DNA of 64,000 nt from Myxococcota bacterium (GTDB lineage Bacteria; Myxococcota_A; Polyangia; Polyangiales; Sandaracinaceae), in assembly GCA_036149055.1 (NCBI GenBank), contig JAYZQJ010000079.1, positions 1 through 64,000 of the forward strand. Reading direction: 5' to 3'. Position 1 is the stretch's first letter, and each line of letters opens with the position of its first letter. Below are positions 6,001-15,000 of this stretch, piece after piece. Made by a program: the position numbers.

Positions 6001-9000
6001 AGCTGCTCGACGGGCTCGCCGCCGCGCACGACCGCGGCATCGTGCACCGCGACATCAAGCCCGAGAACATCTTCCTCACCTGGAACGAGCAGGGGGAGAT
6101 GCACGTGAAGCTCCTCGACTTCGGCGTCGCCAAGAACACCAAGGCGGGCCCGGAGCTCTTCTCCACGCAGCAGGGCGCCATCCTCGGCACCCCCTGGTAC
6201 ATGGCGCCCGAGCAGGCGGCGGGCGATCCGGTCGACGCGCGCGCCGACATCTGGAGCGTCGGGGCGGTCCTCTTCGACGCGCTGACCGGCAGCCCGCCGC
6301 ACGACGCGCCCAACTACAACCGGCTCATCGGCAAGCTCCTCAACGAGGATCCGCCGAAGCTCCGGAGCGTGCGCCGGGAGCTCCCGGAGTGGCTCTGCAC
6401 CGCGGTCGACGGCGCCCTCCAGCGCGATCCGGACGTGCGGTGGCAGTCCGCCCGCACCATGGCCGAGACCCTGCGGCTCAAGGGCAAGGGCGCGATCGAG
6501 CTCGACTGGGAGCTGCACGAGGACGCCACCATGCGCACCAACTCGCCCTTCGACTCGGGCGAGGACGACTCGCGGCCCGCGCTCGCCATGCTCTCGGCGC
6601 CCGACGAGCCGACGGTCGACGTGTCGGGCATGCGCGAGGACAGCGTCGAGGTCGACCTCGAGCAGCTCGAGCCGGAGACGGCCGACGACGCCTCGCCCTT
6701 CGACGCGGCGGGCGGCGCCACCATCAAGAGCGACGTGCCCCCGCCCCACGTGCTGGACGCGATCGCGCGGGCCAAGCGCAAGCCGCGGAGCCGCCTCTGG
6801 ACCGGGGTTCTCCTCGGCGTGCTCTTCACGCTGCTCGTCGCGGCCGGCGCGGGCTGGTTCCTCTACCAGCGCTACGTGCTGCCGGAGGCGGCGACCACGG
6901 TCGCGCCCGGCTGAGCGCTCAGCGCCCGTCGCACCGACGCCTCCACGTCGCGCACGTGATCGGGGTCGAGCGCGAAGATGGTCACCTCGAAGCGGTTCGC
7001 GTCGAGCACCGCGATCTCGGGCTCCCGGGCGATGGCCGACCAGTGGCAGGCGAGGGCGCTCTCGCGGATGCGCCGCTTCGTCTCGGCCACCGGGCGCGCG
7101 CCGGGCACCGTCAGCTCGAAGACGTGCAGGGTCCCGCGCTCCGAGACCGGGGTGCGGAGGAGCTCCGCCCGCGCGACCCGGCTGTAGGGGATGATGGCCT
7201 CCTCGCCGCGCGCCGTCTCCACCACGAGCACGCGCTGGCCCATGCGCTCGACCCGCCCCTGCACCTCGCCGATGCGCACGTAGTCGCCCACGCGGCAGAC
7301 GCGGCCGGCCTTGAGGAAGATGCCGCTGACCACGTCGCGCAGCGCGAACCACGAGGCCGCGATGCTCACCCCGAGGATCACCGCGACCGCGATCGGGAAG
7401 TGCGCCGGGTACTTGTCGAAGAAGAACGCCGCCGACAGGAGCAGGTAGAAGATCGCGGCCGCGCCGCTGAGCAGCGGGTGCGCGCGCCGGAGCTGCTCCC
7501 GCCGGGGCGGGGCCAGCGGCACCACGTCGATGGCGAAGCGCGCCGCGCGCAGGAGGCCCCAGACCAGCAGGGCGCCGAGGAGGATCATCGCTAGGTCGCC
7601 GAACGACGTGTAGACGTCGCCCATCACCGAGGCGTCGAGGCCCTTCGGCTCGCTCTCCGCGGCGACCGCGCCCGACACCCTCACGGGATCACCTTCCGCT
7701 CGCGGAGGCGCTCGACGAGCGCGTGGGTGATGAAGCGGTCGACCCGCAGCACGCCCTGGCGGCTCTCCTTCACCAGGCCCATGCGCCGCAGCGCGTCGAG
7801 CTGGCGATCGAGGTCGCGCCCCTCGAGGTCGGCGACCCGGACGAGCCGCTCCCGGGTCATGCGCTTGTGCAACAGGAGCTGCACGAGGAGCGCGGTCCAG
7901 TCGGCGCGCAGCCGGTCGAGGACCTCCCGGTCGCGTCGGCTCGGCGGGCGGATGGTGATGGTGCGGTCGTCGCCCTCCTCGACGTGCGTGATCCACGAGG
8001 TCAGCGCCGTCCCGACGAGGCCGCGGCTGTAGTCGAAGTGCTGCGAGAAGAGGCGCGCGAGCCGCCACTCGGAGAGCTCGCTCTCGGGCGTCCCGTCCAG
8101 CGAGAAGGTGATGCCGGTCGAGCCGTGCCGGAGGGTGACGATGTCCTTCAGCGCGTGCGCCGGGAGCGGTCCGCACTCCACCACCGCCAGCGCGTGGTCG
8201 GCGAGCGGCCGGAAGCGGTTGACCAGCTCGAACGCGAGGCTGCCCATCTCGAGGAGGAAGAGCACCCGCCCGGCGTGGGCCTCGATCAGCTCGATCAGGA
8301 GGTCGATCACCGCCAGCCCGTGCTCGCTCCGCTCCCACCAGAGCTCCACGTCCTCGATGACCAGCACGCTCCGCTCGGGGATGGTGCTGACGATCTCGTG
8401 CGCGGACCCGCTCACCCCGGTCACCTCGGAGAGCCGGCGGCGGAACACCTCGACGTCGGCCGCTCCGTCGTCGGGCGGCGGCACCCAGTGCAGCTCCCGG
8501 CCGGAGAGCGCCCGGCTCGTCAGCCGGCGGCAGAGCGCGGTCTTGCCGCTGTCCGGCTCGCCGGTGACGACGAGGATGCCGCGCCCGCCGCGCGCGTGCT
8601 GGGCGATGCCGCGCCGCGCCCGGGACAGCTCCTGCTCCCGCTCGACCCAGAAGGTCTCGTTGAAGGTGTTCTTCCCGAAGAAGAGCTGCCGGTAGTAGAA
8701 GGGCAGGTCCTCGAGCACGCTCGCCTTCGGCGTGTTGGCCTCGACGAAGCGCGACACCCGCTCGACCAGCGCGCCCGCCGTCTCCCCCTCGCGCAGCCGC
8801 CGGGCCATCAGCACGCCCGCGCTCCGCCCATAGATGGCCTGCACCAGCCCCTCGCGCGCCCGCTCCAGCCCCCGCAGCGCGAGCGACTGCGCGCCCGAGA
8901 CCGCGCGCTGCCCCTGGTGCCTCCGGATGTGCTGGCCGAGCTGCCGCGCCGACTCGGTGAGCTCGTACACGTCGGTCCCGCGCAGCACCGCCGCGAGCTT

Positions 9001-12000: not shown

Positions 12001-15000
12001 CGACATCTCCTCGAGGATGCGCGGGTTGTCGGTCAGCGACGCGGCCGGCACCCGGAACGCGAGGAACGCGGCCAGCGCGAGGTAGACGGCGAGGCCCACG
12101 AAGATCGCGGCCATGGTCCCCGTCGGGATCGACTGCTTCGGGTCGCGGAGATCGCCCGACATGTTGACGCCGGCGGTGAAGCCGGTGACCGCCGGGAAGA
12201 AGATGCCGAAGAGCACCGCGAACGACGCGCCCTCGGGCGGCGTGCCGATGAGCGGCTCCGGGTTCTCGGGGGGCGAGCCGAAGAAGATCGAGATCAACGA
12301 GAGCGCGATCGCGCCGAGGATCAGGTACTGCGTCTTGATCGCGAGCGACGTGCTGATGAACGTGATCACGGTCAGCAGGACGACGGTGATCGTGCCGCAG
12401 ACCCGGATCGCGGTCGGCGTCACCTCCATGCCGACCACGGCGAGGAAGCTCTCGGAGAAGCCGATGATGTAGAGGCTGATGCTGAACGAGAGCCCGAGGA
12501 AGAGCGCGAGCCCGAGCGTGCCGCCGATCGGGAGCCCGAGGCTCCGCGAGACGATGTAGTACGGACCGCCGGCGCCGACGCTCTTGTCGGTGGCGATCGA
12601 GGAGATGCTCAAGCCGGTGCACACGCTGACGATGTGCGCGAGCACGATGATCGCGAAGGCGAGCGCGAGCCCCGAGTTGCCCACCACCCAGGGCAGGCGC
12701 AGGTACATGATGACGCCGAGGATCGTCAGGATCGACGGCGTGAAGACGCCCCCGAACGTGCCGAACTTGCTGTCGCTCTTCGCCACCCGGGGCCGAGCAT
12801 ATCGTGATCTGGCGTCGGGATTGTCCCCGAAACGCGAACGCGCCCGCTCCGGGAGGAGCGAGCGCGTTCGAGCGGACGGAGCGCGCGAGCGCCAGGCCCC
12901 TACTCAGACCTCGGCGAAGTCCTCGAGGATGCCGCCGCGCGCCTCGCGGAGCTTCTTGAGGGCCTGCACCTGGAGCTGACGGATCCGCTCGCGGCTGAGG
13001 CCGAACTTGTCGCCCACGTCCGTGAGGGTGTGCTCCTCCTCGCCGTCCATGCCGAACCGCATCCGGAGGATCTCCTTCTCGCGGTCCGTCAACGTCTCGA
13101 GCACCGCGCGCATGGTCATCTCGAGCGAGTCGTCGACCAGCGGCTGCATGGGCGTCGCCTGATCGGGGTCGACCACCAGGTCACCGAGGGTGGACGAGCC
13201 GTCCTCGCCGACCGGGATGTCGAGGCTCACGGTGTCCCGCATCGCCTCGAGCAGCTCCTGCACCCGGCGCTCGGGCATCTGGAGCTTCTTGCCGATCTCC
13301 TTGGCCGTCGGCGCGCGCCCCAGCTTCGGGGACATCTCGCCGATCGTGCGCATCACGCGGTGGAAACGCTCGAGCGCGTTGACCGGGATGCGGATGGTGC
13401 GCCCCTGCTCCTGCGTCGCGCGGTTCATCGACTGCCGGATCCACCAGCCCGCGTAGGTCGAGAGGCGGAAGCCCTTGTGGTAGTCGAACTTCTCGACCGC
13501 GCGCATCAGGCCCATGTTGCCCTCCTGGATGAGGTCCAGGAACGGCAGGCCACGGTTGCGGTACTGCTTGGCGATGCTGACGACCAGGCGGAGGTTCGCC
13601 TCGACCATCTCGCTCTTGGCGTGGTCGACGTCGGCGAGCGCTCGGCGGAGCGCCTTCACCGTGTCGCGCACCACAGCGAGCGGCTGGCCGGCGTCCTCCT
13701 CGATGCGACGCACGACGCGGCGGGCGTCACGGATGGCGCGCACCGCGCCCTCGTCGGCGCCGCGCTTGCGGAGCCGATCGATCTGCGCCGGCGTGAGCTG
13801 CACCGCCTCGTCGAACCCGATCGCGAGGCGACCGACCGCGCGTCGGATGGTGCGCTCGCTGCGCTCGACCTGGCGGAGGTAGTTCTCGAGCCGGTTGGTG
13901 ATCCGCTCGAGGCGCTTCTCGTGGAAGTCGATCGAGCAGAGGACCTGCGCGCGCTCCTCGACCAGCGCCTCGCGCTTGCTGCCGCGGGCCGATCGCATGC
14001 GATGCTCCACGTCCATGACGCGGCGCAGCTTGGCGACGGTGTCCTCGAACGCCTGAGCCTCCTCTTCGGTGCCCTTGCGCAGGTTCTCCGCCACGACCTC
14101 GCGCACGCTCATCTCGCCGTTCTCCATGCGCTGGAGCATCTCGCTGAGCTCCGGCATGCGGATCGACGTGCGCCACAGGAGATCGAGCACGACCGCGCGG
14201 CCCTTCTCGATCTGCCGCGCGAGCTCGATCTCGCCGTCACGCGTGAGCAGCGCGACGTCACCGAGCTTGCCGAGGTAGCGCTCGATGCTGTCGAGCTGGT
14301 TCTTCGACGACCGGTAGCCGCGGCTCTGACCGCGCGCCTTGTCCGGCTTGGAGCCGTCCGTCACCGAGAGCCCGATCCCGAGCTCCTCGAGCTCGCGAAG
14401 GGCGCGCGGAACGGCACGCTCGAGGTCCGGCTCCCCCGCCAAGGAGGCCGACACTTCGTCGTAAGTCAAAAAGCCACGGTTCTTTCCCTTGGCGAGGAGG
14501 GCCTCACCGAGGATGGTCGCGTTGGGCTTTCGGTTGTACTGCTTCAAGGGGTCCCTGCCTTCCTCCACGCCCCCGCCGAGACGGTGACGGGACGAATGGT
14601 TGTTGGGTCGACGATGCTCCGACATGTTCTTCCCCCATGATCCTTGGGGCCGAAACGGGGGACGCACAGTCCTGAGACGGACGATGCGCCTTGGCGTTCC
14701 AACGCGCTGGTCTCGAAGGGGATGTAAGCTCCGTGGGGGCCACGCCAAATCGGGCGGCTGTGGCGTATCCGCACGGCGCGCCAGGCCTCCGCCACCCCCG
14801 ATTTCTTCGGAGGGGTCCTCATCGTGGGACTCGAAGACGGATTCCTCGGCGTCTGTTCAGTGGTGACAACGTAAGAACGCAAACGGCGCCTGTAAACCCC
14901 CCGGCCCGATGTGGGCCACGAGAGGAGTACGGGCGAGCAACCGGATCGTTTCACGCCCACGTCCGCGGATTCATCCGCCACCCACCCTCAACCGGGGTGG

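Follow-up and report, generated by a model that had tools for sequence, protein, structure and literature searches.

A bacterial SLC12-type cotransporter fused to a STAND-like NTPase and paired with a divergent MscS-fold protein: a candidate regulated ion-uptake unit

SLC12 cation-chloride cotransporters (CCCs), the kind of transporter blocked by kidney diuretics, combine an APC-fold membrane domain bearing Na2, K and Cl site residues with a two-part cytoplasmic domain, and NKCC1, KCC2 and archaeal maCCC share this organization with the protein described here. In the regulated K+ transport systems TrkAH and KefC, activity of the transporter is likewise set by a cytoplasmic nucleotide-binding module, although these systems use RCK/KTN domains and have neither a stalk-borne STAND-like NTPase nor an MscS-fold partner. 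STAND and NB-ARC proteins (plant NLRs, Apaf-1, Avs) possess an N-terminal functional domain, an hhGRExE-like motif, a Walker A motif, a helical lid and a winged helix that is a structural part of the module, and STAND NTPases typically carry a C-terminal sensor domain. Members of the MscS family (EcMscS, MscK, MSL10) have three transmembrane (TM) helices, a beta domain, an alpha-beta domain, G121 and Asn or Asp at position 117, and in MscS a terminal PFP-type motif leads to the cage-closing strand.

Elements of all these systems meet at a locus of Myxococcota bacterium (Sandaracinaceae; assembly GCA_036149055.1). The window analyzed is the stretch of 64,000 nucleotides at positions 1-64,000 of contig JAYZQJ010000079.1, and the locus has the following features.

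7681..12786, minus strand: CCC-stalk-NTPase-winged-helix fusion gene (g02699), an ORF of 1,701 aa, GC3 0.985
11554..12768, minus strand: SLC12/APC transmembrane domain, residues 7-411 (Pfam, NKCC1 alignments)
10657..11553, minus strand: SLC12 cytoplasmic domain, about residues 412-710 (KCC2 alignment)
8722..10551, minus strand: helical stalk, about residues 746-1355 (AF2 model)
7927..8721, minus strand: AAA+/STAND-like NTPase core and helical lid, about residues 1356-1620 (fold searches)
8629..8652, minus strand: hhGRExE-like motif FWVEREQE (family consensus FWVGRxxE)
8539..8562, minus strand: Walker A GEPDSGKT, residues 1409-1416 (homologue alignment)
8344..8367, minus strand: Walker B region VLVIEDVE, residues 1474-1481, followed by the family motif WWER (homologue alignment)
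7684..7926, minus strand: terminal winged-helix domain, about residues 1621-1701, at the end of the protein (AF2 model)
6872..7684, minus strand: MscS-fold partner gene, 270 aa from an overlapping GTG (250 aa from a later ATG), GC3 0.985
7307..7408, minus strand: partner TM3 region, residues 93-126, without Gly at EcMscS G104/G108/G113, with Trp at Q112 and Asp at N117, and with Gly121 kept

The reading favored here, with a probability of roughly 0.45, casts the partner as a scaffold and a sensor of tension or turgor, which would control salt uptake through the NTPase, so that the two genes would form a regulated ion-uptake unit.

Pfam places AA_permease (PF00324) on residues 14-411 of the fusion protein (E 4e-45) and AAA_22 on residues 1400-1530 (E 2.3e-6). 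The best solved relatives of the transporter part are KCC2 and KCC4 (260 bits over residues 156-651), followed by NKCC1 (234 bits); 32 SLC12 chains match at E<=1e-55, and the match to TIGR00930 scores 357 bits, under the whole-protein cut-off of 953. The alpha/beta C-terminal domain on the cytoplasmic side is present, the KCC2 alignment being unbroken through residue 651. The maCCC structure 3g40 is absent among the 40 matches listed for the fusion protein, whereas a plain prokaryotic CCC matches it at 154 bits, and the cytoplasmic domain appears to resemble that of KCCs more than that of archaeal maCCC. Unlike SLC12 proteins and maCCC, the fusion lacks a long N-terminal tail before the membrane domain and is some 1,000 residues longer at the C-terminus, owing to the stalk, the NTPase and the winged helix; it also has a dedicated partner gene. 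The ion-site residues of NKCC1 are defined in the available part of 10.1101/2021.11.11.468215, and the residues named there are kept in this protein and in nearly all (92-100) of 100 long homologues. These are the K+ site (hNKCC1 Y383, P496 and T499; here Y106 in 94/100, P198 in 100/100 and T201 in 93/100), the Na2 site (hNKCC1 A610, S613 and S614; here A275 in 97/100, S278 in 95/100 and S279 in 94/100) and the Cl- site tyrosines (hNKCC1 Y533 and Y686; here Y235 and Y349, each in 96/100). The L502-equivalent is replaced by Glu in 44/100 CCC members. The CCC domain is probably a secondary Na+/K+/Cl- cotransporter that would not need ATP for ion movement.

A preliminary description of the locus had reported an SLC12 transporter fused to a helical and NTPase module, and the ORF, the Pfam matches, the ion-site residues and the single-frame loci of other genomes bear this out. 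The fusion occupies a single frame in 80/98 CCC-type loci; in 9/98 the frame is broken, at scattered places and with no sequence missing, and another 9 are cut by contig ends. The broken-frame loci are probably assembly errors or products of decay rather than natural two-gene forms. Contigs of public runs span the junction between the cytoplasmic domain and the helical part with no indel listed and, given these contigs and the 80 single-frame loci, the fusion is not an assembly artefact. Both genes are tiled by contigs from the RNA libraries of two studies, with one contig crossing the gene junction; these contigs may be of DNA origin, give neither strand nor level and do not establish a single transcript. 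A scan of the locus for promoters and terminators returned nothing above shuffled sequence.

The middle part of the protein, described earlier as probably helical, is indeed predicted by AF2 to consist of about 600 aa of long helices. These reach about 58 residues and are interrupted by two small beta-hairpin inserts. The stalk is homologous to that of module proteins with an N-terminal CPA antiporter domain (hhalign 99.3%), and hhalign found no stalk homology in those with a five-helix membrane domain (0.1%). There is a hint that the stalk may contain a two-fold internal repeat, from an hhalign signal of 57-69% over only 41-47 columns. No usable match to the stalk was found in the Atlas, and its sequence matches in the PDB were all noise of the P-loop and coiled-coil kind.

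The NTPase and winged-helix region (AF2 model pLDDT 89.9) has an AAA+-type core, a lid and a winged helix. Its best structural matches are Cdc6/Orc1 and archaeal AAA+-wHTH ATPases (2qby, 2qen, 2fna), which have the same AAA+ core, lid and terminal winged helix; the fusion differs from them in being membrane-bound, and identity is 12-14%. Cdc6/Orc1 ranks first (Z 14.8, rmsd 7.3, 280 aligned) and is followed by 2qen (Z 14.2, rmsd 8.9, 282 aligned), while the NLR 6j5t (Z 12.9, rmsd 3.7, 220 aligned) scores lower than Cdc6/Orc1. A fold search with the whole module, stalk included, was filled by NTPase matches. The lid position that we take to correspond to sensor 2 of Cdc6 has no Arg in the fusion protein. 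The likeness to Cdc6/Orc1, together with weak ArsR, MarR and TrmB matches of the winged helix in several members, might suggest a membrane-tethered transcription regulator whose winged helix binds DNA under the control of transport or tension. These matches are mostly weak, however, no conserved operator or target gene came to light, although none was sought, and the structural role of the winged helix in NB-ARC/STAND modules also makes a DNA-binding role very unlikely.

The motifs of the NTPase are those of STAND proteins in part. In the hhGRExE-like motif of 113 CCC-type homologues, Arg is found in 91/113, Glu in 92/113 and Gly in 74/113, with the complete G-R-x-x-E in 48/113; the CCC fusion of this genome has Glu in place of the Gly (FWVEREQE). 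The lid GxP (GLPL) motif of STAND/NB-ARC proteins is GLV in this fusion and occurs in only 20/113 CCC-type members, compared with 8/15 of the CPA type and 6/7 of the five-helix type. His1640, considered as a counterpart of the MHD-type His that contacts ADP, is present in 112/113 but lies early in the winged helix. In the model the protein ends with the winged helix, and homologues align to the last residues, with no C-terminal sensor domain. The Walker A K[TS] is kept in 96/113 CCC-type homologues, while Walker A is mostly degenerate in the CPA type (canonical GK[TS] in 2/15). The Walker B motif of STAND NTPases is defined as hhhhD[DE] in the available part of PMC6713354; compared with that definition, the CCC fusion reads hhhhED. 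Intact Walker A and B motifs had been claimed for the P-loop domain, which holds for Walker A and fails for Walker B (VLVIED), where Glu occupies the first acidic position. That position is Asp in 34/113 CCC-type and 7/7 five-helix-type members, and the second acidic position is Asp in 99/113 of the CCC type. Compared with STAND/NB-ARC proteins, then, the fusion lacks the sensor domain, belongs to a family that has mostly lost the first Walker B Asp, and has an ion transporter as its N-terminal domain. Since Walker A is kept and the first Asp of Walker B mostly lost, the domain is more likely to be a nucleotide switch than a motor, and the NTPase at the far end of the long stalk would act as a nucleotide-dependent switch or adaptor. 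A P-loop fused to a transporter, with Walker A kept in the CCC types, could also be taken for an ATP-driven pump, with the CCC domain moving salt uphill on energy from the NTPase. With K[TS] and hhhhD[DE] together in only 28/113 CCC-type homologues, an intact Na+ driver site and P-loops that are mostly degenerate in the CPA type, a pump is hardly credible.

The earlier claim that an MscS-family gene overlaps the stop codon of the fusion is confirmed: the start of the partner and the stop of the fusion share GTGA, and Pfam places MS_channel_2nd on partner residues 115-171. The partner model (pLDDT 90.2) has three TM helices, a beta domain and an alpha-beta domain; nine MscS-family chains occupy ranks 1-9 of the fold search (Z 10.2-13.0; best match 7dlu with Z 13.0, rmsd 8.3, 242 aligned), and a profile match to EcMscS covers residues 9-209 (E 8e-15). 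The partner differs from MscS family members in that the Gly-Ala packing of TM3a is replaced by bulky residues, Trp is conserved at Q112 and the PFP-type end is missing. Gly at G104, G108 and G113 occurs in 3/96, 12/96 and 5/96 CCC-type partners, as opposed to 5/11, 8/11 and 1/11 ordinary homologues; G113 does not discriminate because Gly there is rare in ordinary homologues too. Trp stands at Q112 in 80/96 CCC-type partners and Gly at G121 (TM3b) in 95/96. The terminal PFP-type motif is found in 0/96 CCC-type, 0/12 CPA-type and 0/6 five-helix-type partners compared with 8/11 ordinary homologues, and the last elements of the partner model are a helix and then a tail of low confidence. Partners of the five-helix type keep G108 (6/6) and look more canonical.

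The Gly/Ala-rich TM3a (G104, A106, G108), whose roles in MscS are described in the available part of PMC6261518, is lacking in CCC-type partners as judged against that account. The preliminary description of the partner as a mechanosensitive channel stands as regards the MscS fold; the glycine-rich packing of the pore is lost, as is the C-terminal motif. Because of these two losses, the partner is most likely a membrane-tension or turgor sensor and scaffold. It may nevertheless still be a channel, since the conductance of MSL10 depends on bulky Phe residues (PMC6261518) and mechanosensitivity persists in a miniature MscS from a trypanosome (PMC12334622), according to the available parts of both sources.

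The linkage of the two genes extends well beyond this genome. As reported earlier, the C-terminal module occurs in 9/40 other genomes of the order (E below 1e-100 over the whole module), with an MscS gene directly after it in 9/9; 4 further genomes of this sample have a weak NTPase match only. Frames in the nine carriers had been given as long in seven, with one cut by a contig end and one split into two genes. Seven are of 1,702-2,158 aa, one of which is itself broken within the NTPase, and two are of 1,133 and 1,071 aa; the supposed split appears to reflect frame breaks. The range outside the order, left as a gap in the preliminary description, is far wider, with CCC-type members in at least six phyla; Plesiocystis pacifica and Enhygromyxa salina are among the cultured bacteria that carry the gene pair. 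An MscS-like gene follows 118/120 module frames examined, mostly with an overlap of 1-4 bases, and one of the two exceptions lies near a contig end. Reciprocally, the module is directly upstream of 16/17 partner-like matches (E<=1e-25) in other genomes, 151 of which were searched. These loci are kin and some are probably repeats of one record, and the counts therefore overstate independence.

The N-terminal domain on the module is a CCC, a CPA antiporter or a five-helix membrane protein; in the last type, Pfam matches are confined to the NTPase and winged helix. This genome has all three architectures, each with its own partner, and as judged from sequence the invariant core is the NTPase module with the MscS-like partner, not the transporter. 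The plain CCC paralogue had been said to lack both, and the gene concerned, on contig C217, does match residues 14-710 only, with no MscS-like gene found on that contig. In a quick tree, the NTPases of the CCC type group together on one side of a branch (SH-aLRT 100), and CCC-type partners are likewise set off from the 10-11 ordinary MscS homologues that this genome encodes (FastTree 100), as a separate clade tied to the NTPase fusion gene; the trees broadly follow taxonomy. Of 22 non-CCC loci, 6 have a TrkH-like neighbor and 6 have a second CPA-like gene nearby, TrkA-TrkH lies beside the CPA-type locus of this genome, and a plain CCC is inserted between module gene and partner gene in 2 loci. 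Other neighbors include a sigma-70 factor and a kinase, and at CCC-type loci no neighbor beyond the partner recurs outside close kin. The fold is STAND-like and its matches include Avs and NLR chains, which could suggest an anti-phage system in which ion flux via transporter or channel kills the infected cell. Neither protein has a PADLOC match at E<=0.01, C-terminal sensor repeats are absent, the neighbors are the sigma-70 factor, kinase and Trk genes, no match was found among 72,556 plasmids and the trees follow taxonomy, all of which makes a defense role highly improbable.

It is also possible that the two proteins act independently, with the NTPase regulating only its own transporter (in response to energy charge, for example) and the partner serving as a low-threshold release valve that offsets salt uptake. 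Retention of the entire MscS fold, with G121 in nearly every partner, would fit, as would the divergent MscS relatives that still conduct, as far as the available parts of PMC12334622 and PMC6261518 describe them, and the evidence for linkage is all genomic. Operon co-inheritance without contact also yields gene coupling and matching clades. However, this genome has 11 other MscS homologues, so that a further free valve explains little, and the partner accompanies the NTPase module whichever of three unrelated N-terminal domains the module carries, but is missing beside the plain CCC paralogue; independent action is unlikely, if worth keeping in mind. Alternatively, since the direction of signaling is not given by sequence, the transporter domain could be an ion sensor (transceptor) and the NTPase could gate the MscS-like protein as an effector channel. 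N-terminal domains are interchangeable here, as is often the case with sensors, the five-helix type has no recognizable transporter, a pore that tension by itself does not open could depend on a partner for its gating, and Glu at the L502-equivalent is frequent. Against this, the Na, K and Cl site residues are all kept, as in a working transporter, and STAND effectors are usually N-terminal; the reverse direction is rather doubtful.

Under the favored reading of a sensor and scaffold, the translationally coupled MscS-fold protein would be a dedicated partner whose state is relayed through the NTPase and stalk, so that salt uptake would rise on cell shrinkage and be switched off once turgor is restored. 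The same type of switch-plus-partner cassette is also attached to the five-helix membrane protein and, within operons for Trk K+ uptake, to CPA antiporters. A predicted complex of three partner cage domains (residues 108-258) with the NTPase region scores 0.58, with one control as high as 0.43, and thus favors binding no more than its absence. Symmetry counts against this reading because CCCs are dimers (PMC9784483) and MscS is a heptamer (PMC6261518), according to the available parts of these sources. A more specific and still tentative proposal, less likely than not, is a STAND switch under mechanical control that is provided with a sensor in trans. The NTPase, having no sensor domain itself, would dock on the cytoplasmic cage of a non-conducting MscS-fold ring, read membrane tension through this ring and, via the stalk, switch an interchangeable transporter (NKCC-like or CPA). 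Of the ATP-regulated osmotic unit first suggested for this locus, a nucleotide-controlled ion-homeostasis unit stays the best reading, whereas the intact AAA motor does not, Walker B being variable.

Searches of openly available papers found no description of a STAND-like NTPase on secondary ion transporters with a dedicated MscS-fold protein. The parts each belong to or resemble known families, and the recurrence of the switch-plus-partner pair on several membrane proteins points to an undescribed way to control ion transport. If the coupling is physical, it shows a way for salt uptake in a bacterium to be linked directly to membrane tension, MscS-fold proteins would have a regulatory role beyond that of release valves, and ion transport would join the processes that STAND switches control. 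Should the switch with its sensor in trans prove true, it would be a portable mechanosensing cassette and a bacterial counterpart of the volume-dependent regulation of NKCC and KCC, in which a STAND NTPase takes the place of kinases. The bacterial transporters described here, NKCC-like with a cytoplasmic domain of KCC-like type, occur in cultured myxobacteria and may also offer a handle on how SLC12 proteins are switched via the cytoplasmic domain and on the origin of the eukaryotic family.

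The gene pair lies on the minus strand of the window.

7681-12786, minus strand: fusion gene, a 1,701-aa frame (GC3 0.985) with Pfam matches to AA_permease (residues 14-411) and AAA_22 (residues 1400-1530).
6872-7684, minus strand: partner gene, a 270-aa frame (GC3 0.985) with a Pfam MscS beta domain.

The GTG start of the partner gene overlaps the stop codon of the fusion gene as GTGA. The fusion of a cation-chloride cotransporter (CCC) to the C-terminal module is real, since 80 of 98 CCC-type loci encode it in a single frame; nine others are cut by contig ends and nine have frame breaks at scattered places. 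A repeated count agreed with the preliminary description in finding the full module in 9 of 40 genomes of the order, with an MscS-type gene after it in all nine. The plain CCC paralogue of the same genome, described as having neither module nor partner, aligns to the fusion protein only over residues 14-710, and its contig (C217) yielded no MscS-like gene. Public annotation names these proteins 'amino acid permease', 'AAA family ATPase' or 'cation:proton antiporter'. A Ser/Thr protein kinase gene (5550-6914, plus strand) is convergent with the partner gene, their 3' ends overlapping by 43 bases; since a similar neighbourhood recurs in the closest relatives only, this is probably incidental. 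A sigma-70 factor gene (regions 1.1-4; 12904-14748, minus strand) has the same orientation as the fusion gene and ends 118 bases upstream of it. Translations at 19792-21627 and 21644-23922 (both minus strand) read as a repeat protein that is rich in Cys and has a lipoprotein-like leader, and as two adjacent similar secreted proteins.

Ion-site residues of the transporter domain were placed by alignment to NKCC1 chains, using the site list in an excerpt of 10.1101/2021.11.11.468215. Residues of the K+ site (Y106, P198, T201), the Na2 site (A275, S278, S279) and the Cl- site (tyrosines Y235 and Y349) are present, and are conserved in 93-100 of 100 long homologues (TM1 positions in 92-96). The alignment indicates that KCCs lack the two Na2-site serines, whereas the fusion protein has both, and it is therefore NKCC-like in its predicted ion sites. 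Over the cytoplasmic domain its alignment to KCC2 is unbroken, and the archaeal maCCC structure is absent from the matches listed, whereas a plain bacterial CCC matches maCCC at 154 bits. The equivalent of hNKCC1 L502, beside a chloride site, is T204 (12177-12175), a position with Thr in 50 and Glu in 44 of 100 homologues; it may alter anion or proton coupling.

The AlphaFold2 model of residues 720-1701, built from a 78-row alignment, is confident (mean pLDDT 89.9), with an arrangement of domains that is unsure because pTM is 0.59. Long helices extend to about residue 1355 and are followed by a P-loop core, a lid and a winged helix. Fold searches ranked Cdc6/Orc1, TnsC and archaeal AAA+-wHTH ATPases highest, with NLR and Avs chains slightly below. 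An anti-phage role is highly improbable, as PADLOC gave no match to the window pair and there was none among the plasmids searched. The winged helix, the last domain, could belong to a DNA-binding regulator, which is also improbable. An FWVGRxxE motif precedes Walker A and the lid of related module types has a GxP; judged by the STAND motif list in an excerpt of PMC6713354, these motifs lean towards STAND. Of 113 rows, 96 keep K[TS] in Walker A but just 34 have Asp at the first acidic position of Walker B, where His occurs in 37, Asn in 18 and Glu in 17; the two motifs are canonical together in 28. The NTPase is left outside STAND because Walker B departs in this way and no sensor follows the winged helix. 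With Walker A mostly kept but the Walker B Asp mostly lost, it would work as a switch; an ATP-driven pump is the least credible reading.

The model of the partner has three TM helices, a beta domain and an alpha-beta domain, and its best structural matches are MscS chains. Numbered by mapping onto EcMscS, the 96 CCC-type partners have Gly at G104 in 3 and at G108 in 12, Trp at Q112 in 80, Asp at N117 in 95 and Gly at G121 in 95; a terminal PFP-type motif occurs in none, versus 8 of 11 ordinary homologues. According to an excerpt of PMC6261518, gating of EcMscS critically needs G104, A106 and G108, and MSL10 conducts despite bulky pore residues and has a non-conducting role as well. The partner may thus be a conducting protein or a non-conducting one. 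That it is an independent valve encoded in the same operon is a doubtful alternative.

Of the weaker matches in the phylum 21 were fetched, and one extra frame inside a fetched locus brought the sample to 22; these are not CCCs. A Pfam Na+/H+ exchanger (CPA) domain occurs in 6 of 20 scanned frames, eight further frames were placed in the CPA group for their similarity and their large number of predicted TM helices, and one more is cut at the N-terminus. This group has the stalk in common with the CCC type (hhalign 99.3%). Seven proteins form a five-helix type, in which a hydrophobic N-terminal leader and a soluble region come before about five TM helices; the NTPase and winged helix are all that they share with the CCC type. 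One member of the CPA-like fusions, P0282 (1,817 aa), has additional carboxypeptidase-regulatory-like Pfam domains. The window's genome carries all three types, the CCC type on C79, and 11 other MscS homologues.

CPA-type operon, contig C195 (L141:2678-12916): a membrane protein that has some eight predicted helices and matches nothing in Pfam, then TrkA and TrkH, a CPA-stalk-NTPase fusion of 1,515 aa and an MscS-like partner whose N-terminus carries a long extension.
Five-helix pair, contig C160 (L142:4886-8993): a 1,097-aa protein in which a hydrophobic leader and a soluble region precede five TM helices, the NTPase and the winged helix, then an MscS-like gene closer to the canonical form.

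The layout of the five-helix pair presumably resembles a split MscK-like channel. Of 120 module frames with a C-terminus, 118 have an MscS-like gene downstream in the same orientation (CCC group 97/98, others 21/22); this count leaves out the paralogue and one locus cut ahead of the C-terminus. Conversely, the module is immediately upstream in 16 of 17 partner-like matches of other genomes. The core is the module plus its MscS-like partner. In two Bacteroidota loci a plain CCC with an archaeal-type cytoplasmic domain stands between the two genes (L132:9224-11434, L137:9087-11345). A TrkH-like or second CPA-like gene is found upstream in 12 of the 22 non-CCC loci, and in two loci a second module-plus-partner pair, N-terminally cut by the locus end, is convergent to the CCC-type pair a few kilobases away (L118:11582-16134, L137:13930-16120). 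The CCC type is separate with full support in both NTPase and partner trees, which were made with a quick method and FastTree and have long branches, kin that are not independent and some loci that are probably one record.

Residues 720-1701 matched 1,138 clusters at E<=1e-3 (421 at E<=1e-30) among 1.84 billion representatives. Scanning GTDB genomes gave 300 confirmed stretches, and the best 80 of the 300 fall in Myxococcota (37), Bacteroidota (16), Calditrichota (7), Ignavibacteriota (4), Fidelibacterota (3) and Rhodothermota (1), with 4 labelled simply as proteobacteria and 8 unassigned. Of 301 genomes in the phylum of the window, 70 match the module, 20 of them at E<1e-40.

The evidence establishes the architecture and its site residues, the state of the motifs, the coupling of the genes, the existence of three architectures and a separate clade of partners. 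Beyond these a mechanism may be proposed, to which as a whole we assign a probability of about 0.45. The partner would be in physical contact with the fusion protein and would sense membrane tension or turgor, and the NTPase would pass this signal along the stalk so that salt uptake is controlled. The reverse direction, in which the transporter is the sensor and gates the partner, is unlikely.

PMC11509652 reports multi-copy SLC12A2-like genes, likely for salt adaptation, in Bradymonabacteria without giving their architecture, and the transporter census of PMC3924187 lists no CCC in Myxococcus xanthus. The open literature searched describes neither fusion nor gene pair, though a mention in a domain-architecture table is possible, as the search did not extend to supplements or to most subscription papers, the original STAND classification among them. 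The component folds are known, and for the whole system no described counterpart was found in that literature; the system itself is real, conserved across phyla and modular.
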